Assembly (NCBI GenBank): GCA_016432485.1
Contig: CP066691.1
Coordinates: forward strand, 11,348-75,347
Direction of reading: 5' to 3'
DNA length: 64,000 nucleotides
From: Candidatus Niyogibacteria bacterium
Lineage (GTDB): Bacteria; Patescibacteriota; Minisyncoccia; HO2-45-28
Position numbers and translations under genes: made by a program. Shown here piece after piece: positions 5,457 through 49,032 of this stretch (within the stretch, counting starts at the first letter, position 1; each line of letters opens with the position of its first letter). The notes below the pieces were generated by a model that saw only the letters and a list, made by a program, of their open reading frames with translations, ran no database searches and had not been told where the DNA came from.

Positions 5457-7238
5457 ATGACTATGGGAGTGAACAAAATTGTTCGGATAATTACGCTCGC
5501 GAAATCAGCTTTCGGGCAATATAAATGGCAAATTGCTCTTTTAGCGGGGCTTAGTTTTTTGAGCGGCGTTCTGGATGTGGTGGGAATCAACGCTATTATT
5601 CCCATTTTTTCCGTGATTCAGGGCGGGGGCGCGACCGACATTATTTCAAAAACGACAAAAAGTTTTTTCTTATTTTTCGGCGTTCCTTTCACGGTCAGAT
5701 ATCTTATGATTTTTATGGCCTTGATGTTTTCGGCAAAGGCCGCGTTTCTTTTCGCGTCCAAATATATAAATTTGAAGATAGCCGCGGACTACGAAAAAAA
5801 CACCAGAAATGAATTGTTTAGGGCAATGGTTGAAAGCAACTGGCCCCATCTCGCGAGGCAAAAGGCCGGACACCTTAGTCAGGTTTTGATTATGAATGTA
5901 GAGAGAGGCTCGTCTCTTCTTATTCATCTCGGGGGATCCGCTCTCATTGTCACGAATTTTTTGGTCTACGGTTTTCTGGCGCTAAATGTGTCTTTTCTTA
6001 TAGCAATGCTCGCTTTTGCTTTCGGAGGAATAATCCTTCTGGTTTTTAAACCGCTTTATTACAGAACTAAGATGGCCTCTGAAGAGATGGTCCGAAAATA
6101 CAAAGATTTGGCCCATTACACCGATGAAACCGTTTTGGGAATGAAAGCCGTAAAGTCGGCTCGGGTCGAAGAACCGGTTTTAAAATTGTCCTCTAAATAT
6201 TTTAGCGCGATGAGAAAGCTTTATTTGCGCATCGGATTTCTTAGAAGCATTACGGATGTTCTTCTCCAGCCAATTGCCGCTTTTTTCATTTTGGGAATTC
6301 TTGCCGTTTTTTACAAAACAGGAACATTGCATTTTGTTTCTTTTGCCGTAATTATTTACGCGATTAACCGGGTTTTTTCCAATGTTCAGGCGGCTCAAAC
6401 CGAAATACATGTTTTGAATTCAGACGCGCCGCATGTTTTGAGCATTTTGGCGTTTAAGGAAGAGGCGAAACTTAATAAGGAAAAAGAAACGGGAACAAAA
6501 TCGTTTCAATTCGGCAAATCAATTGAATTTCGAAATGTCGGTTTTTCTTACGATGGCGATAGCCGGACTCTGTCGGACATAAATTTTTCCGTCGCCAAAG
6601 GCGAAATGCTGGGAATTATCGGTCCGTCGGGCGCTGGAAAATCAACTCTCGTGGATTTGTTTTTGCGGCTTCAAATTCCTCAAAAAGGCGCCATTTTGGC
6701 CGACGGAGAAAACATAAAAGACATTAAGCTCGGGGATTGGAGGGCAAACATCGCTTATGTTTCCCAGGAGGCGTTTTTAATGAATGACACTATTTATGAA
6801 AATATCAGATTTTACAATGAAGGACTGAACAAGGAAGACATAATTGACGCGGCAAAACTCGCGAACATTTACGATTTTATTCAGGCATTGCCTGACGGAT
6901 TTGAAACGGTGGTCGGTGAACGCGGTATGCGGCTTTCCGGCGGAGAACGTCAGCGCGTAGTTCTTGCCCGGGCGCTTGTCAGGAAGCCGCAAATTTTGAT
7001 TTTGGATGAAGCAACGAGTTCGCTTGACAACGAATCAGAGCTCTTAATTCAAAGAGCGGTTGAAAAGCTGAGGGGCAAAATGACCATTATCGTCATAGCG
7101 CATCGTTTGAGTACCGTTGAAAATTCCGATAAACTGGTTGTGCTTGAAAATGGCAGGGTCTCCGAGGCCGGAGCTCCAACCGAACTTTTAAGAGATAAAC
7201 ATTCCTATTTTTTTAAAGTTTATAATTTAAGAAAATAA
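5457..7238 (+). CDS. ABC exporter, fused permease/ATPase (MsbA/lipid-flippase-like)
   Basis: Six-TM N-terminal half, Walker A GPSGAGKST, ABC signature LSGGERQR, Walker B ILILDEATSSLD, H-loop AHRL. Confidence 0.85.
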   Translation: MTMGVNKIVRIITLAKSAFGQYKWQIALLAGLSFLSGVLDVVGINAIIPIFSVIQGGGATDIISKTTKSFFLFFGVPFTVRYLMIFMALMFSAKAAFLFASKYINLKIAADYEKNTRNELFRAMVESNWPHLARQKAGHLSQVLIMNVERGSSLLIHLGGSALIVTNFLVYGFLALNVSFLIAMLAFAFGGIILLVFKPLYYRTKMASEEMVRKYKDLAHYTDETVLGMKAVKSARVEEPVLKLSSKYFSAMRKLYLRIGFLRSITDVLLQPIAAFFILGILAVFYKTGTLHFVSFAVIIYAINRVFSNVQAAQTEIHVLNSDAPHVLSILAFKEEAKLNKEKETGTKSFQFGKSIEFRNVGFSYDGDSRTLSDINFSVAKGEMLGIIGPSGAGKSTLVDLFLRLQIPQKGAILADGENIKDIKLGDWRANIAYVSQEAFLMNDTIYENIRFYNEGLNKEDIIDAAKLANIYDFIQALPDGFETVVGERGMRLSGGERQRVVLARALVRKPQILILDEATSSLDNESELLIQRAVEKLRGKMTIIVIAHRLSTVENSDKLVVLENGRVSEAGAPTELLRDKHSYFFKVYNLRK

Positions 7239-7240
7239 AC

Positions 7241-7522
7241 ATGCCCAGTACAATTACACCGATTGTGTTCTTCTACACTTATGTTCTGCGTAGCGATAAA
7301 GATGGCGATAATTACATAGGTTACAGCCACGATCTAAAAAAGAGATCAGAAGAACACAAAAAAGGCCTTGTTCCTGCCACTAAACACAGAAGGCCATTGA
7401 AGTTAATATATTATGAAGCATGTTTAAACAAAGAGGACGCTCAACAAAGAGAAAGATATTTAAAAACCACAAGGGGTCGAAGGTGGTTTGGCATGAGATT
7501 GCGAAATTATAAATCGGTGTAA
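7241..7522 (+). CDS. GIY-YIG nuclease family protein (YhbQ/UPF0213-like, 93 aa)
   Basis: GIY-YIG core (FYTYVLRSDKDGDNYIGYSHDLKKRSEEH) with C-terminal RERYLK...GRRW. The ORF is bounded by 18-bp perfect inverted repeats. Confidence 0.8.
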   Translation: MPSTITPIVFFYTYVLRSDKDGDNYIGYSHDLKKRSEEHKKGLVPATKHRRPLKLIYYEACLNKEDAQQRERYLKTTRGRRWFGMRLRNYKSV

Positions 7523-7530
7523 TTGTACTG
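7244..7530 (+). mobile_element. Small putative mobile unit: GIY-YIG ORF flanked by perfect terminal inverted repeats cagtacaattacaccgat / atcggtgtaattgtactg
   Basis: The sequence at 7246-7263 is the exact reverse complement of 7513-7530. The unit is inserted precisely between the ABC gene stop (7238) and the next gene. Its termini (CCCAGTACAATTA) are shared with the 140-bp element at 9836-9974. Confidence 0.6.
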
Positions 7531-8845
7531 CAAAACCTGTTTGCCCGGAATTATTTTTCACGAGCACTATGATGCCTGGGACGGCAAGCCCGCGCCGGCT
7601 TTGGCTTCGGCCGAATTTGAGCCGCCGTCTTACGAACTTATCAGTAAGTTCCATAAGACGGAGTCATTAGTCTTAACAATGATGAATAAACGTTTTGACT
7701 GGATGGGGACGGATGAACGAAGACATCTTTACTACACAATGCTTTCATACTGGAACGGAGTGGTTAAAAAATTTAATCCGGATGCCGTGATTTTCAGTAC
7801 TGCTCCGCACACCGTGTATGATTATATTCTTTACGAAATCGCGCGCTCGGAAAACATTAAAACAGTTATGTTTTGGAATATGTCTCCGATAGACGGCCGG
7901 CTGTTTTTCTATGAAGATTTTCGCGAGGGGAGCGGGCTTTTAAGTAAAATTACGCGAAAAAACATGAGTTACAATTTTTCGGTTTCTGATTTAAGCGAGG
8001 AAACGAGGAAATTTTATGAAACCGGAACATTAATCGGCGTTGACGCCCTCCCGCTCTATTTAAAAGAAGACCATGAACGCTTCGCTTTTTTAAACAGGAT
8101 GATTCTAAAGACGAAAGCGATTTTAGCGACTATTAAGCGGGGAGAATTTGTTGAACAGACGGCGCGGCGCGCGGCCAATTTTTTTAAAGAAAATATCCGG
8201 GACGAACACATTCGGGCGCAGTTTATTCCCGATTACTCCCAAAAATTCGTTTATGTCCCTCTGCATTATCAGCCCGAATGCACAACTTCCCCCTTGGGAG
8301 ACATATTTGTTGACCAAATTCTGATGATTAAAATTCTTTCAGCGTCTCTTCCCGTCGGATGGAAAATTTACGCAAAAGAACATCCTTTTCAATGGTATCA
8401 GCGCGGGCTAAATTTCGCGGGCTCGCGTTACCGCGGCTACTACGATAAAATATCCGGCATTAAAAATGTTCGTCTGGTGCCCCTGGAAACTGACAATTAT
8501 GAACTGATAAATCGCGCTCAAGCCGTGGCAACCGTCGGCGGCACCGCCGGCATTGAGGCGCTTTTACGCCAAAAACCCGTTATAGTTTTTGGTTATCCCT
8601 GGTATCGCTCTTGTCCCCATGTTTTCAAAGCGGACGGCGTGGAATCTTGCAGCAAGGCTCTTCAAAAAATCGCGGACGGATTTTCCGTGAATAATCAATC
8701 GATAATAAATTTTTTAAAAAACCTTGACGAAAGCACGATTCGCGGGTATGTTGACGAATATGGTCAGAGGTTTGTAAGGTTGAGCGCGGAAGAAAACTCG
8801 GCAAACATATCGCGCGCGATTTTGGAAATAATAACGGAAAAATAA
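7523..8845 (+). CDS. Capsule_synth family protein (KpsS/KpsC-like beta-Kdo-transferase family; candidate CMP-ulosonic-acid transferase)
   Basis: Blocks align with E. coli KpsS: VYVPLHYQPE, EHPFQWYQRG, LVPLETDNYELINRAQAVATVGGTAGIEALLRQKPVIVFG. The true start is probably the ATG at 7679 (MMNKRF...), because 7523-7678 contains the IR terminus and a strong hairpin and uses a TTG start. Confidence 0.6.
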   Translation: MYCKTCLPGIIFHEHYDAWDGKPAPALASAEFEPPSYELISKFHKTESLVLTMMNKRFDWMGTDERRHLYYTMLSYWNGVVKKFNPDAVIFSTAPHTVYDYILYEIARSENIKTVMFWNMSPIDGRLFFYEDFREGSGLLSKITRKNMSYNFSVSDLSEETRKFYETGTLIGVDALPLYLKEDHERFAFLNRMILKTKAILATIKRGEFVEQTARRAANFFKENIRDEHIRAQFIPDYSQKFVYVPLHYQPECTTSPLGDIFVDQILMIKILSASLPVGWKIYAKEHPFQWYQRGLNFAGSRYRGYYDKISGIKNVRLVPLETDNYELINRAQAVATVGGTAGIEALLRQKPVIVFGYPWYRSCPHVFKADGVESCSKALQKIADGFSVNNQSIINFLKNLDESTIRGYVDEYGQRFVRLSAEENSANISRAILEIITEK

Positions 8846-8848
8846 TCT

Positions 8849-9835
8849 ATGTCGTTTGAATGCTTAAAAGATAAAGCTATTTTAATAACCGGAGGCACCG
8901 GTTCTTTCGGCCGGAGTTTTGTCCGTCATTTGCTGGGCTCTAAAGCAAAAAAGATTGTTGTTTTTTCAAGGGACGAGCTGAAGCAATCCGAGATGCAGAG
9001 CGAAATGAAAGACGAGCGTCTGCGGTTTTTTATAGGCGATATTCGCGATTTGTCCCGCCTTCAAAGGGCTTTTCGGGATGTTGATGTCGTGGTGCATGCC
9101 GCGGCTCTTAAACAGGTGCCGGCAATGGAATACAATCCGTTTGAGGCGGTGCAAACCAATATAATCGGAAGCCAAAATGTTATTGAAGCCGCGATTGACC
9201 AAGGTGTCCGAAAAGTTTTACTTATATCAACCGACAAAGCCGCGGAGCCGATAAATCTTTACGGCGCCACTAAGCTCTGCGCGGAAAAATTGTTTATAAG
9301 CGGAAATTCTTACGCTCCGGGGAAAACCATTCTTAGCGCGGTGAGATACGGGAATGTTATCGGCAGTCGCGGGAGCGTTATTGACGTTCTTAAAAGAAGT
9401 CGGGATGTCAAGCGCGTTTACATCACGGATCCGGCTATGACTCGTTTTTGGATTACCTTAAATCAAAGTTTTAAACTTGTGGATTTCGCGCTTGAAAATA
9501 TGACCGGAGGAGAAATTTTTATACCGAAACTTTCAAGCATGAAACTTTCGGACTTGTTTGATGTTTTGGCGCCGGGAGCCGAGCGGGAAATAATCGGTCC
9601 TCGCGCCGGAGAAAAAATTCATGAAGTACTGCTTACCAGCGAAGAGTCCTATAGGGCGTTGGAAATGGAAGATATGTATGTGGTGCTCCCTCTGTTTCCT
9701 TATGAGGCGGATATTCATTCCAAATATCATGAATCTGGACGGAAACCCGAGTCGGGATTTCGCTTCGCCAGCCACACGAATAAAAATTGGCTTACTAAAG
9801 AGGATTTTAAAAAAATACTTAACGACGAATTATGA
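8849..9835 (+). CDS. pseB: UDP-N-acetylglucosamine 4,6-dehydratase (inverting), PseB/FlaA1-like
   Basis: ILITGGTGSFGRSFV start, then IGDIRD, VVHAAALKQVP, ISTDKAAEPINLYGATK, TDPAMTRFWITL. The protein is a short (328 aa) CapD-type enzyme. Confidence 0.85.
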   Translation: MSFECLKDKAILITGGTGSFGRSFVRHLLGSKAKKIVVFSRDELKQSEMQSEMKDERLRFFIGDIRDLSRLQRAFRDVDVVVHAAALKQVPAMEYNPFEAVQTNIIGSQNVIEAAIDQGVRKVLLISTDKAAEPINLYGATKLCAEKLFISGNSYAPGKTILSAVRYGNVIGSRGSVIDVLKRSRDVKRVYITDPAMTRFWITLNQSFKLVDFALENMTGGEIFIPKLSSMKLSDLFDVLAPGAEREIIGPRAGEKIHEVLLTSEESYRALEMEDMYVVLPLFPYEADIHSKYHESGRKPESGFRFASHTNKNWLTKEDFKKILNDEL

Positions 9836-9974
9836 CCCAGTACAATTAAATCGAATGCTAAATTTAGTTTCTTGGGTGGTATAAATATGTATTATTATAA
9901 AATTATATTTAAGCAAATTAGTCGGGAGTTTGCTTGCGAATTTAGCAAGAAACTTTCGATTTAATTGTACTGGG
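9836..9974. mobile_element. MITE-like ORF-less element with 20-bp perfect terminal inverted repeats (cccagtacaattaaatcgaa ... ttcgatttaattgtactggg)
   Basis: The sequence at 9836-9855 is the exact reverse complement of 9955-9974. Its termini match those of the GIY-YIG unit at 7244-7530. It fills the entire pseB-pseC spacer, and its right end supplies GGG just before the pseC ATG. Confidence 0.6.
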
Positions 9975-11111
9975 ATGATTCCTTATAGCCGTCAGTCTGT
10001 TGACGCGAACGATATCAAAGCGGTTGTCGGGGTCTTGTCGTCTGATTTTATTACGCAAGGGCCGACGGTGTCTAAATTTGAAAAATCGCTCGCGCTTTAT
10101 TGCGGTGTTGAGTACGCAGTCGCAGTTTCAAACGGAACGGCTGCTTTGCATCTGGCGTATCTCGCCGCCGGATTAAAGAAGGGGGACGAGGCAATTACGA
10201 CCCCGAACACTTTTGCCGCGACCTCAAATATGCTTCTTGTCGTCGGCGCGAGGCCCGTTTTTGCCGATATCCGTCTTGATACGCGTAATCTTGACGAGAC
10301 AAAAATTGAAAAGCTGATTACCCCGAAAACAAAAGTGATTGTGCCCGTGCATTTCGCGGGATTGCCTTGCGATATGAAAACAATTTCATCAATCGCCAAA
10401 AAACGCCGTTTATTGGTTATTGAAGACGCTTGCCATGCTTTAGGCGCCAGGTATCGCGATTCCAAAATAGGCGATTGTAAGTACTCGGACATGGCCGTAT
10501 TCAGCTTTCATCCGGTAAAAACGATAACAACCGGCGAAGGCGGAGCGGTATTAACCAATAAAAAATCATATTACGATAAACTCTTGCGTTTGAGAAGTCA
10601 CGGCATTCACAAAGACAAAATCGGAAAAAATGTCATGACGGCTCTCGGATACAACTACAGGATGACCGATATTCAGGCCGCTTTGGGCTTGTCCCAACTT
10701 TCTAAAGTTGATTCTTTTGTCAGGCGGCGCAATCAAGTCGCGAGATATTATGAGGAGGAATTAAAAAATTCCAAAGATGTTTTGTTGCCCGTAAGCTTTC
10801 CCGGATATTATTCAGCGGGGCATATTTATGTAATAAGGGTTTCCAACCGGAAGAATCGCGATGAGCTCGCGTCTTTTTTAAAAAAGAACGGCATCGGCGC
10901 GAACTTCCATTATCCGGCCGTTTATTCCCACCCGTATTACAGGCGCAACGGTTATAAAAATATCCGCCTTGCTCAAACGGAAAAATACCATAATTCTTGC
11001 ATCACTCTTCCGTGTTACCCCGGTCTTTCCAAATCAATTGTTCGTGAAATCGCGGGGCTTATTAATAAATTTTTCATAAAAAATGAAAATACACGCGTTG
11101 ACTCCGTCTGA
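9975..11111 (+). CDS. pseC: DegT/DnrJ/EryC1/StrS-family PLP aminotransferase, PseC-like (UDP-4-amino-4,6-dideoxy-N-acetyl-beta-L-altrosamine transaminase)
   Basis: MIPYSRQSVD...DFITQGP start; SNGTAALHLA; PLP-lysine region SFHPVKTITTGEGG; C-terminal YPGL. The ATG at 9975 is preferred over the upstream TTG. Confidence 0.85.
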   Translation: MIPYSRQSVDANDIKAVVGVLSSDFITQGPTVSKFEKSLALYCGVEYAVAVSNGTAALHLAYLAAGLKKGDEAITTPNTFAATSNMLLVVGARPVFADIRLDTRNLDETKIEKLITPKTKVIVPVHFAGLPCDMKTISSIAKKRRLLVIEDACHALGARYRDSKIGDCKYSDMAVFSFHPVKTITTGEGGAVLTNKKSYYDKLLRLRSHGIHKDKIGKNVMTALGYNYRMTDIQAALGLSQLSKVDSFVRRRNQVARYYEEELKNSKDVLLPVSFPGYYSAGHIYVIRVSNRKNRDELASFLKKNGIGANFHYPAVYSHPYYRRNGYKNIRLAQTEKYHNSCITLPCYPGLSKSIVREIAGLINKFFIKNENTRVDSV

Positions 11112-20615: not shown

Positions 20616-20656
20616 TCCGAATCCGAACTCGGTTCGGACCGAACTCGGTTCGGATT
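20616..20656. repeat. Intergenic copy of the CCGAACTCGGTTCGG palindromic repeat family (two tandem half-units)
   Basis: Reads tccgaactcggttcgga ccgaactcggttcgga. The same half-unit forms the perfect palindromes at 23030-23070 and 23210-23250. Confidence 0.6.
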
Positions 20657-21913: not shown

Positions 21914-24154
21914 ATGAACTTAATCAAATATCTGGGTTGGGCGATAATCGTCGGTCTTTTCGCGATTGTCCTCATAACCCCCTTCTTCGTTTCGGAATCA
22001 ATGTTTTTTCCGTTTATTACGGGCAAAAATTTTTTATTCCGTATAATCGTTGAAATAATTTTCGCTCTCTGGATTATATTGGCTATGGCCGACAGCCGGT
22101 ATCGGCCAAAGGCCTCGCCCATATTGTGGGCAGCGTGCTCTGTTGTCGGGGTTTTAATCCTTTCCACGATTTTTGGCGTAAACCCTTATCGCAGTTTTTG
22201 GTCTAACTTCGAAAGAATGGAGGGCTTAATATCGCATCTGCATCTACTCGCCTATTTTTTGGTTTTGATAAGCATGTTTAAGTCGTCCATTCAGTGGCGC
22301 AGATTTTTTTATGCTATCTCGGCTTCCGGAGCGGCTATGGCTTTATACGGATATTTTCAGGCGCTCGGTATTTTGACAATCTCCGTTCAAAGCGGTCCGC
22401 GCGCGGACGGCTCGTTCGGCAACGCGAGTTATATGGCCATTTTCATCCTTTTAAACGTCTTTTTCGCTTCTTACTTGTTTTTTACCGAAGAGCGCAAGTG
22501 GCTGAAAAACATATTCGCGGGATTAGTCGTTTTTGAAATTCCCGTTGTGTTTTTGACGGCAACTCGAGGCGCGATTCTGGGGCTTATCGGCGGTTTTTTT
22601 CTTCTCGCCCTGCTTCTCGCCTTTTTTTCAAAAGACAAGCGCTTTCGCTGGGCTTCGATCGGCGTGATAGGAGGCGTTATTCTTTTGGTTCTGATTTTTC
22701 TTTCGGTAAAAAATACCGATTTTGTCAGGAATAACTATGTTTTCCAGCGTTTCGGCGACCTTAGTTTTGCGGAGCGAACGATCCAGTCGCGTTTTATTAT
22801 TTGGAAAATGTCATTTGAGGGGTTTAAGGAAAGGCCAATTTTTGGATGGGGAATTGAAAATTTCGGTCAGGTTTTTAACAAATATTATGAGCCTGCTTTA
22901 TGGCTCCAGGAGCCGTGGTTTGACCGGGCGCATAATGTTATTTTTGACTGGCTTGTGAGTTCCGGCATCATCGGACTTTTGGCATACTTATCGCTTTTTG
23001 GTTCGGCCATATATATTATTTGGAAAAAATCCGAACTCGGTTCGGAATTGGATTCCGAACCGAGTTCGGAATCGGAATCTGCAAAATTGATAACGGCAGT
23101 AGTTTTTACCTCGCTTCTTGCCGCTTACTTTTTTAACAACTTTTTTATTTTTGACAACCTAACATCTTATATTCTATTTTTTTCCGTTCTAGCCTTTATC
23201 CACTTTTATACGAACTCGGTTCGGAATCCAATTCCGAACCGAGTTCGGACTTGGACATCGGGGCCACTTCATTCGTTTCTTGTGGCATTTATTATTTTGG
23301 GGCTTATTTTTTCACTCTATTTCTTAAATATAAAACCGATATTGGCCAATACTTGGCTTTTGCAGGCGCTAAAGGACACTAATTTTCAAGGACAAAATAT
23401 TGATTTGGTCTTATCCGATTTTGAAAATGTCTTTAATTTACGGACATTTGGAACAGGGGAGGCGAGAGAGCAGTTAAGCACCTATGCTAATGCTGTTTTC
23501 GGTTCCGTTTTGCCCCAAAAGTTAAAGGACAAAGTCACACAAGTGTCTATTAATGAGCTTGAACGTCAGACTAGGGATAATCCTGAAGATCCTCGCGGTT
23601 ATCTTTTTCTGTCCTCTATGTATACCAATGCCGGACGCCACGAGGACGCCCTGCGCGCGGTTGAGCGTGCCCTTGAGCTTTCTCCAAATAAACAGCAAAT
23701 TCTTTTCCTTTTAGCGGAAACTCACCTTAATCTGGGCGGCGTTAAAAGGGCCTATGATTTGGTAAAAATTGCTTATGAATCGGCCCCGGAATATCAAAAA
23801 GCAGTCCAAAATTTTGCCACTATGTCCATTATTAATGGTTTGTCCGATGAAGCTGAAAAGGCTCTGATAAAATTTTTTGGGACTGCTCTGGTGGCAGATC
23901 AGCAGTTGGTTAATGCCTACGCGCGGGTTGGAAATTACGAACGGGTACGCGATATTTGGTTGGAATTCATTAGGAAGGACCCGCAAAACGTCCAATATCA
24001 TATTAATCTTGCTGCCACCTATATGGAGCTTGGCGAGCGTCGGGAGGCCATAAATGAAATTGAAAAAGCCATTGAACTAAATCCTCAATTTAAAGATCAG
24101 GGCAGAGCGCTGATAAATGAGATAAATGCCGGCAGGAATCCTGTGAGCAGGTAA
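21914..24154 (+). CDS. Membrane protein with O-antigen ligase/Wzy_C-like polytopic domain fused to C-terminal TPR repeats; candidate glycan ligase/oligosaccharyltransferase
   Basis: About 12 TM segments with a Wzy_C-like region (TATRGAILGLIGGFFLL). The C-terminal 250 aa consists of TPR repeats. It contains two in-frame palindromic insertions. Confidence 0.6.
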   Translation: MNLIKYLGWAIIVGLFAIVLITPFFVSESMFFPFITGKNFLFRIIVEIIFALWIILAMADSRYRPKASPILWAACSVVGVLILSTIFGVNPYRSFWSNFERMEGLISHLHLLAYFLVLISMFKSSIQWRRFFYAISASGAAMALYGYFQALGILTISVQSGPRADGSFGNASYMAIFILLNVFFASYLFFTEERKWLKNIFAGLVVFEIPVVFLTATRGAILGLIGGFFLLALLLAFFSKDKRFRWASIGVIGGVILLVLIFLSVKNTDFVRNNYVFQRFGDLSFAERTIQSRFIIWKMSFEGFKERPIFGWGIENFGQVFNKYYEPALWLQEPWFDRAHNVIFDWLVSSGIIGLLAYLSLFGSAIYIIWKKSELGSELDSEPSSESESAKLITAVVFTSLLAAYFFNNFFIFDNLTSYILFFSVLAFIHFYTNSVRNPIPNRVRTWTSGPLHSFLVAFIILGLIFSLYFLNIKPILANTWLLQALKDTNFQGQNIDLVLSDFENVFNLRTFGTGEAREQLSTYANAVFGSVLPQKLKDKVTQVSINELERQTRDNPEDPRGYLFLSSMYTNAGRHEDALRAVERALELSPNKQQILFLLAETHLNLGGVKRAYDLVKIAYESAPEYQKAVQNFATMSIINGLSDEAEKALIKFFGTALVADQQLVNAYARVGNYERVRDIWLEFIRKDPQNVQYHINLAATYMELGERREAINEIEKAIELNPQFKDQGRALINEINAGRNPVSR
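23030..23070. repeat. 41-bp perfect palindromic element inserted in frame in CDS (encodes SELGSELDSEPSSE)
   Basis: Reads tccgaactcggttcggaat tgg attccgaaccgagttcgga. Two 19-bp arms are exact reverse complements, with a 3-nt spacer. Confidence 0.7.
23210..23250. repeat. Second copy of the palindromic element, opposite orientation (spacer cca), in frame (encodes TNSVRNPIPNRVRT)
   Basis: Reads acgaactcggttcggaat cca attccgaaccgagttcggac. It is read in a different frame and orientation from copy 1, which argues for DNA-level insertion. Confidence 0.7.
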
Positions 24155-48731: not shown

Positions 48732-48887
48732 TTATCCACAATAGAGGATTTGATTGTTTTTTAGAGTAAAGTGGTATAAAATTATATATAAGTGGTGAAT
48801 TGTGGATAAATCTGTGGATAGTGTGGATAAATACCGATATTGCCTACGAACGGAGTGAGTAGACGCAATATCGAGCGTTTATCCACC
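48732..48887. promoter_or_regulatory. Cluster of five DnaA boxes plus AT-rich tract (oriC-like or DnaA-regulated region) upstream of mraZ
   Basis: TTATCCACA at 48732-40. TGTGGATAA at 48801-09 and 48823-31. TGTGGATAG at 48814-22. TTATCCACC at 48879-87. AT-rich run aaagtggtataaaattatatataag at 48770-48795. Confidence 0.6.
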
Positions 48888-49032
48888 CTCACACCCAAAA
48901 ATCACGTATTATGTTCAATTTTTATGAATCATATTCAAGGAGAGAATTAAAAGCGACGCCCCCCAAGTTGTTTTTGGGTGTGAGGGTGCGCAATTTTACA
49001 ACCAAAATTTCTTCGCCTAACGGCTCGAAATT

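Follow-up and report, generated by a model that had tools for sequence, protein, structure and literature searches.

In the 64,000-nucleotide stretch of Candidatus Niyogibacteria DNA analysed here (hereafter the window), a pseB-like gene and a pseC-like gene are separated by a short palindromic unit, which raises the question of what this unit is, where it came from and what it does between two genes of one operon. A preliminary description had proposed a MITE-like, non-autonomous derivative of a GIY-YIG unit lying upstream, mobilised in trans, and had suggested that the insertion might supply the promoter of pseC. We examined the structure of the unit, the orthologous loci of relatives and the distribution of its termini in other genomes.

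A palindromic unit occupies the whole pseB-pseC spacer

The pseB-pseC spacer consists of one palindromic, MITE-like unit of 139 bp without an open reading frame (ORF), at 9836-9974 on the forward strand (Table 1). Its terminal 20 nt are complementary at 20 of 20 positions and enclose 99 nt. The pseB-like ORF ends at 9835 (stop codon TGA, 9833-9835) and the pseC-like ORF starts at 9975; the element is thus the entire spacer, and its last base adjoins the pseC ATG. The perfect terminal repeats and the position given in the preliminary description were thereby confirmed. Beyond a 10-nt bulge, the palindrome is lengthened by two inner arms. A 151-nt stretch around the element was folded as RNA (-50.7 kcal/mol, z -8.3 relative to shuffles) and as DNA (-31.1 kcal/mol, z -8.95), so that the folding check suggested earlier gave a stable structure in both forms. 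For the pse operon, this means that the element puts a hairpin of -50 kcal/mol immediately 5' of pseC. Several of the features by which MITEs are recognised were seen in the element: a length below about 500 bp, no transposase ORF, terminal inverted repeats and, as described below, a target-site duplication. For bacterial MITEs we refer to the review PMC10969869.

Table 1. Coordinates of the two elements of the window and of their host genes.
Feature	Position	Strand	Remarks
Left terminal inverted repeat CCCAGTACAATTAAATCGAA	9836..9855	+	20/20 complementary; first 13 nt shared with GIY-YIG cassette left end
Right terminal inverted repeat TTCGATTTAATTGTACTGGG	9955..9974	+	Pairs with left repeat
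Target ATGA, left copy	9832..9835	+	Includes pseB stop TGA
Target ATGA, right copy	9975..9978	+	Includes pseC start ATG
Inner repeat arm AGTTTCTTG	9866..9874	+	Pairs with 9946-9954; present in folds
Inner repeat arm CAAGAAACT	9946..9954	+	Partner of 9866-9874
Candidate 25-codon mini-ORF (MYYYKIIFKQISREFACEFSKKLSI)	9887..9964	+	Stop 10 nt before pseC ATG
pseB-like dehydratase, upstream host gene	8849..9835	+	Polysacc_synt_2, E 2.6e-91
pseC-like aminotransferase, downstream host gene	9975..11111	+	DegT family, E 5.5e-118
Resident GIY-YIG cassette	7244..7531	+	Left end intact (ATG followed by CCCAGTAC), right end truncated
GIY-YIG nuclease ORF, 93 aa, single domain	7241..7522	+	Pfam PF01541, E 1.9e-14
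GIY-YIG cassette, left inverted repeat	7246..7264	+	Encodes N-terminal PSTITPI
GIY-YIG cassette, right inverted repeat	7512..7530	+	Holds ORF stop TAA (7520-7522)
Capsule_synth gene minus ~34-40 N-terminal codons	7523..8845	+	Joined to truncated cassette end

Frame 0 is the sole frame open across the 139-bp element; it spans 42 codons, a length equalled by 3.7% of shuffles. The only ATG-initiated reading frame is the candidate mini-ORF from 9887, whose TAA (9962-9964) lies in the right repeat, where the GIY-YIG ORF of full cassettes has its stop codon. This mini-ORF, in the frame that the nuclease would use, is suggestive only, and any function would be inferred from weak evidence. A GIY-YIG profile (120 homologues), run against the element in all six frames, scored -1.5 bits, which is within the shuffle range and lower than many shuffles; an apparent resemblance of MYYYKIIF and FFYTYVL to GIY-YIG was dropped.

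For the proposal that the element acts as pseC promoter, the promoter scan gave one weak hybrid match, combining a -35 in pseB with a -10 (TACAAT) in the left repeat and agreeing at 9 of 12 positions; promoter-type matches in the region numbered 10, not clearly above the 5.5 +/- 2.6 expected from shuffles. Such a weak sigma-70-like match (9/12) is present at both elements of the window (7227-7254 and 9819-9846), with TACAAT inside the left repeat of this terminus subfamily and a -35-like hexamer in the upstream host DNA.

The unit is inserted into overlapping stop and start codons

The direct repeat ATGA, which the preliminary description had not recorded, lies on both sides of the element. 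The closest PseC homologues (71-73% identity) are encoded on two contigs, L056 and L057, which have the gene order of the window locus: ABC transporter, two Capsule_synth genes, pseB and pseC. Both lack the element at the orthologous junction, which is the outcome of the comparison of pseB-pseC spacers called for earlier. In L057 the empty site reads GAATCATGATTCC, with a single ATGA; pseB and pseC overlap there as GAAGAATC-ATGA-TTCCATAT, to be compared with GACGAATT-ATGA-(139 bp)-ATGA-TTCCTTAT in the window. At the junction itself, GAATC-ATGA-TTCC of L057 corresponds to GAATT-ATGA(139 bp)ATGA-TTCC of the window (GAAGAATCATGATTCCATAT against GAATTATGA(139 bp)ATGATTCCTTAT). In L056 the spacer measures 2 nt.

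These data show that the 139-bp unit was inserted where pseB and pseC ancestrally overlapped in a stop/start ATGA, and that the insertion duplicated 4 bp. Taking out the element together with one ATGA restores the ancestral overlap; owing to the duplication, neither the TGA of pseB nor the ATG of pseC was lost. The data agree equally well with a duplication of 3 bp (ATG or TGA) if the element is credited with one base more.

The same comparison bears on the idea that the hairpin was selected chiefly as an RNA or DNA element serving the pse operon (a processing site, a translational-coupling device or an operator) whose likeness to cassette ends is secondary, as an exaptation. Such a role would suit the very stable RNA fold, the location of the stop and start codons at the stem base, the mini-ORF ending 10 nt before the pseC ATG and the presence of both elements of the window within one operon. 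However, in the relatives without the element the coupling of pseB to pseC is direct, through ATGA in L057 and across a 2-nt gap in L056. Nor did the hairpin match any Rfam family: permissive settings over 7000-10300 returned only a plant microRNA hairpin model, far below threshold (32 bits against 140), and gathering thresholds over the whole window returned two tRNAs only. Moreover, the same termini bound nuclease genes at unrelated loci and in unrelated taxa, as described in the next section. We regard this idea as very unlikely.

The termini of the element recur in GIY-YIG cassettes of CPR bacteria

The second element of the window is a resident cassette that carries a GIY-YIG nuclease gene within a perfect 19-nt inverted repeat. 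As had been noted, the first 13 nt of the 139-bp element (CCCAGTACAATTA) exactly match its left end at 7244. Exact copies of this 13-mer lie at 7244 (+), 9836 (+) and 9962 (-), and a copy with two mismatches lies at 7520 (-); in 128 kb (two strands), about 0.002 exact matches are expected by arithmetic, and about 1 with up to two mismatches. The PF01541 match spans residues 11-80 of the 93-aa nuclease, in which no other domain was seen, and the nearest solved structures are UPF0213 proteins, only at E 7e-5. No match to the nuclease was obtained by tblastn against PLSDB plasmids, and neither PHROGs nor PADLOC gave a family for it. Compared with its homologues the ORF has a dN/dS of about 0.15, which indicates purifying selection on the protein.

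The resident cassette is truncated on the right, where GTACTGca stands in place of GTACTGGG-N-ATG. The nuclease ATG (7241) is found 2 nt past the stop codon of the ABC-transporter gene (7236-7238), at the position of the first Capsule_synth start codon of L056 and L057. That gene, the upstream paralogue, is missing entirely from the window, and the cassette end is fused in frame to about codon 41 of the second Capsule_synth orthologue (63% identity). Relative to L056 and L057, this corresponds to a deletion of ~1.6 kb that begins exactly at the truncated cassette end. The residual Capsule_synth ORF runs in frame from a TTG immediately after the nuclease stop codon.

The family was assembled by fetching DNA around further homologues of the GIY-YIG protein. 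Eight independent elements, the two of the window included, carry an inverted repeat of 19-23 nt at their ends, of the type CCCAGT...ACTGGG in seven and CTCCG...CGGAG in one. The gene content of the full cassettes is one single-domain GIY-YIG nuclease gene (~90-100 aa). Scans of public genomes and metagenomes gave one genuine paired match, a 292-bp unit in Candidatus Jorgensenbacteria (L013, L037). It is ~79% identical in nucleotide sequence to the Niyogibacteria cassette from CCCAGT to ACTG(GG), and the flanks are unrelated. Judged by such alignments, the comparison shows the cassettes to be discrete units in unrelated genomic contexts of several CPR lineages. Synonymous sites are near saturation (dS ~1), yet the 20-nt termini of these two cassettes are identical at 20/20 positions, which means that the ends are constrained as nucleotide sequence and not by coding alone. 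Variation within the family is mirrored between the arms: L041 has A for C at position 8 in both, and in another subgroup both arms contain ...ACTTCA.... In a more divergent cassette type (P0047; L045-L054) the repeat is another one, ACCCTGTTAAATAA, located 40 nt upstream of its own ATG.

The termini of the 139-bp element match GIY-YIG cassettes at 17 of 20 positions, with the outer 13 nt identical; compared with the Niyogibacteria and Jorgensenbacteria cassettes, positions 14, 16 and 20 differ, on both arms. Through this match the element's termini fall, at the sequence level, into the CCCAGTA... family seen at the ends of GIY-YIG cassettes from several CPR lineages. The three mirrored differences show that the element is not a copy of the ends of the neighbouring cassette, and that it was derived from, or co-evolved with, a different cassette variant.

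The proximity of the two units, only 2.3 kb apart and with 13 terminal nt in common, could also point to a chance repeat, to an assembly artefact or, as the preliminary description had considered, to a local duplication of the neighbour's ends. Duplication is contradicted by the unrelated interiors and by the three differences, each concordant between the arms. Chance is contradicted by the ~0.002 exact 13-mer matches expected (arithmetic and shuffle control). The clean 4-bp duplication relative to the orthologous empty site and the nearly identical termini in Jorgensenbacteria also count against this group of explanations. We give these three explanations next to no credence.

Cassettes lie at the start codons of host genes

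The general layout of the family is YATG, element, YATG-gene, at the start codon of a host gene. In the eight-element family the right end adjoins an ATG or lies one base away from it, except at the truncated right end of the resident cassette, and an ATG precedes the left end in six of the eight; the P0047-type cassettes likewise adjoin a host ATG on the right. The downstream host genes, on the same strand, include relA/spoT (L041), ileS (L043), radA (L061) and a cohesin-like gene (L013), in addition to pseC for the 139-bp element and an uncalled ORF in L060; the L044 contig stops at the ATG. The left and right flanks read TATG and TATG in L044, L060 and L061, CATG and CATG in L041, (T)ATG and (G)ATG in L043, and ATGA and ATGA at the 139-bp element. 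The fourth base beyond ATG agrees in five of these six intact flank pairs, which would occur by chance in ~1% of cases at a match probability of 0.3.

The nuclease ORF usually begins at the host ATG, reads through the left repeat and stops in the right repeat. At five of six intact right junctions (L013, L041, L043, L060 and L061) a stop codon (TAA, TAG or TGA) is found 10-11 nt before the host ATG; in L044 the nuclease stop lies upstream of the right repeat. Reading through the left repeat accounts for the N-termini of nuclease homologues, 26 of the 120 nearest of which begin MPS/MPR..(N/T/K)T... A common annotation oddity, the 'MPSNTTS' N-terminus seen in many small GIY-YIG proteins of CPR bacteria, is thus explained as the translation of a terminal repeat.

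In L013 (1323-1352), the left junction reads TATAG instead of TATG, and the nuclease begins at an internal ATG. The upstream gene had overlapped the target, and TATAG supplies its stop codon; it looks like a compensatory change following insertion into an overlapping stop/start.

In the window, the sequence upstream of most genes is A/T-rich and lacks a Shine-Dalgarno-like motif, and many genes overlap or adjoin the one before them. Much of the translation in this genome probably depends on coupling or unstructured leaders.

Copy number and origin of the 139-bp element

A search with the termini for further copies, as proposed in the preliminary description, found none. No second copy of the 139-bp element is present in the 64-kb window (the source contig measures 836,981 bp), and no paired copy was found in 185,579 GTDB species-representative genomes; a paired copy of its termini was likewise absent from JGI metagenomes and IMG/VR. 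The scans of public genomes and metagenomes were exact pattern matches only. The terminus patterns matched 31 times in GTDB and nine times in JGI, and all of these matches other than the Jorgensenbacteria cassette were single, unpaired and attributable to chance; in IMG/VR, two patterns gave one chance match each. blastn of the element and of its 99-nt interior against all fetched loci returned nothing beyond the seeded termini. As for polymorphism, the host protein of the Jorgensenbacteria cassette is encoded on 14 contigs, of which four distinct contexts were returned; all contained an identical cassette, so that no empty site and no filled/empty polymorphism was found among them.

Our preferred reading is that the 139-bp unit is a non-coding derivative of the inverted-repeat-bounded cassette family that carries the GIY-YIG nuclease gene, and we consider this probable. 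The interior holds no detectable GIY-YIG remnant, so it is the ends that carry the argument for descent from a full cassette. Also in keeping with this reading are the position against a host ATG, the TAA where the family has its stop codon and the likeness of the right subterminal stretch to the 3' end of the GIY-YIG ORF. The MITE-like character put forward earlier stands to the extent that the unit is a short, ORF-less, repeat-bounded insertion with a duplication relative to L057 and with the ends of the cassette family. Its membership of a multi-copy family and its mobilisation in trans are unproven: one copy was found, and trans action would have to be inferred, as we know of no GIY-YIG transposase.

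The unit might instead be an in-situ relic, in which a full cassette inserted at the pseC start, then lost its ORF by internal deletion or replacement, and never moved in its short form. This would agree with the single copy everywhere searched and with a context, adjoining the host ATG, that is exactly that of full cassettes. The right subterminal stretch TTGCGAATTTA (9934-9944), next to the inner arm CAAGAAACT, also resembles TTGCGAAATTA near the 3' end of the GIY-YIG ORF, and cassette ends are deletion-prone in this genome, as seen from the truncated right end of the resident cassette beside the ~1.6-kb deletion. On the other hand, perfect 20/20 repeats continued inward by a further palindrome (9866-9874/9946-9954) are unexpected from random decay, and the 99-nt interior has no ORF remnant at the protein level and, save for the right subterminal stretch, none at the DNA level. 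We judge an in-situ relic to be rather unlikely, though a serious alternative, and retain a short derivative of the cassette family as the working interpretation.

Relation to known systems

The closest characterised system is Ssn/NTS. Ssn enzymes are 94-aa single-domain GIY-YIG proteins whose substrate is single-stranded DNA, in which they bind a hairpin repeat and cleave immediately upstream (Chenal et al., Nat Commun 2025, PMC11893778). Hairpin repeats lie on either side of the ssn genes, in a layout that the authors call identical to that of an insertion sequence, with no insertion event shown; the NTS repeats number hundreds of copies, ORF-less copies occurring elsewhere in the genome, and the term 'start codon' does not occur in the paper (PMC11893778). 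The CPR cassettes are alike in encoding a single-domain GIY-YIG protein with no DNA-binding domain (~94 aa in Ssn, 93 aa here), in the hairpin-capable repeats on each side of the gene and in the ORF-less repeat copy elsewhere in the genome. They differ in several respects. The SRM is a local hairpin of 20-50 nt, whereas the arms of the CPR cassettes pair across the whole element, and the published SRM motif (HGTCWY..YYVSBRH..WNVSBRG..RNCYNB) had 0 matches on either strand of the window. The CPR repeats extend into the coding sequence, where they cover its start region and stop codon, and the cassettes lie at host start codons with a 4-bp duplication. Finally, NTS is present in hundreds of copies, compared with one short element in 64 kb here. 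What would be new, by comparison with Ssn, is an Ssn-like nuclease-plus-repeat element with MITE architecture.

REP/RAYT (REPIN) and IS200/IS605 elements use HUH/Y1 transposases with covalent intermediates and are not known to produce a target duplication. They resemble the present family in having one small nuclease gene between inverted palindromic sequences, short hairpin-forming non-autonomous derivatives and a presumed single-stranded hairpin chemistry; here, in contrast, the protein is of the GIY-YIG type and 4 bp are duplicated. Membership of these groups was rejected, as GIY-YIG is the only domain and there is no HUH (Y1) transposase. The comparison of REP/RAYT and IS200/IS605 with GIY-YIG nucleases was drawn by the authors of the Ssn study (PMC11893778).

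In size, terminal repeats, duplication, intra-operon position and hairpin, the 139-bp element resembles Correia/NEMIS, ERIC and RUP. These are units of 100-200 bp with terminal inverted repeats and short target duplications, which lie between genes of one operon and are co-transcribed to form long mRNA hairpins. They are multi-copy, and their known parents are insertion sequences with DDE transposases, whereas the present element is single-copy and its putative parent encodes a GIY-YIG nuclease.

Homing endonucleases such as I-TevI and Seg share with the cassettes the GIY-YIG catalytic domain of a selfish gene inserted between or at host genes. They have a C-terminal DNA-binding domain, enter the cognate allele by recombination and are not known to have terminal repeats; the CPR cassettes, in contrast, have terminal repeats, occupy many unrelated loci and encode a protein of 93 aa in the window. 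Assignment to the GIY-YIG homing endonucleases was rejected on this length and on TIGR01453, which aligns to residues 14-46 only and scores 20.4 bits (cut-off 56.05). CPR bacteria, the host group of the cassettes, also have GIY-YIG ORFs in rRNA-gene insertions that are introns of neither group I nor group II and do not look like homing (PMC11270868). The likeness lies in the host group and in GIY-YIG genes within non-intron insertions; those insertions differ in being located in rRNA genes, and PMC11270868 describes no terminal repeats. In the literature searched, repeat-bounded GIY-YIG cassettes at start codons in CPR bacteria, or short derivatives of them, were not found described.

A possible mechanism of insertion and maintenance

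By analogy with Ssn, the nuclease of a cassette may recognise the conserved CCCAGTA... termini, perhaps as a hairpin or cruciform in single-stranded DNA, and may cut the junction between element and flank beside the ATG, on each strand. Insertion would then take place at a staggered break at YATG. Elements that landed at start codons would persist, since translational coupling would maintain expression of the host gene. Of a full cassette, the 139-bp element would retain nothing but the ends that act in cis, and it would require a cognate nuclease; the resident nuclease would meet ends of which only the outer 13 nt match those of its own cassette. To our knowledge, no GIY-YIG enzyme catalyses transposition, nor do we know of any that forms a covalent DNA intermediate.

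Start-codon placement may reflect targeting, or survival alone. In a compact genome, an insertion that borrows the host ATG and returns the ribosomes ~10 nt before the restored ATG would be among the few to spare the gene, and this would explain how selfish DNA persists in compact CPR genomes. Placement at start codons could be an outcome of purifying selection, not of targeting; in addition, the register of the duplication differs, being ATGA at pseB-pseC and YATG elsewhere.

At present the 139-bp element is most likely a co-transcribed hairpin spacer. Most window genes lack a Shine-Dalgarno motif, so initiation of pseC beside a 20-bp stem probably relies on upstream ribosomes, those finishing pseB (or the mini-ORF) being probably needed to open the stem.

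Taken further, the data leave room for the tentative proposal that the CPR GIY-YIG cassettes are an unrecognised class of autonomous prokaryotic transposon. Its sole protein would be a ~90-aa Ssn-like nuclease, and it would insert at YATG with a 4-bp duplication, take over the start codon and initiation signals of a host gene for its own ORF, and hand the ribosomes back via the stop in the right repeat; the 139-bp element would be its first MITE. We put this forward as possible, though less likely than not, and we know of no prokaryotic transposon driven by a GIY-YIG nuclease alone. The filled and empty sites with their duplication, the cassette boundaries across CPR classes and the start-codon context make the mobility hypothesis testable.

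Other repeats and GIY-YIG genes

L043 carries a second GIY-YIG gene of another subfamily (121-360, - strand; 79 aa), 1.6 kb from the first and immediately 5' of infC. Instead of CCCAGT-type ends, a local GC-rich hairpin lies close before its ATG. Two types on one contig suggest that several kinds of small nuclease gene are possible per CPR contig. In L055 (330-430), a tRNA-like sequence (GCCCCCGTAGCTCAGATGG) and the 3' end of a more distant GIY-YIG homologue overlap, and no inverted repeat was seen to flank this locus.

Two further palindromic repeats of the window were considered as relatives of the 139-bp element and rejected, as the sequence families are unrelated. The intergenic region between lysS and mraZ contains, at 48884-48988, an 18-nt inverted repeat (CACCCTCACACCCAAAAA) that is perfect and encloses a 69-nt loop. 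At 23027-23252, within the ORF 21914-24154, there are two copies, 184 nt apart, of a perfect hairpin of ~40 nt (CGAACTCGGTTCGGAAT..ATTCCGAACCGAGTTCG); related half-sites occur at 20624-20656, with seven matches against 0.21 expected. The hairpins at 23027-23252 apparently represent a different family of small palindromic repeats, tolerated in frame in a membrane-protein gene.
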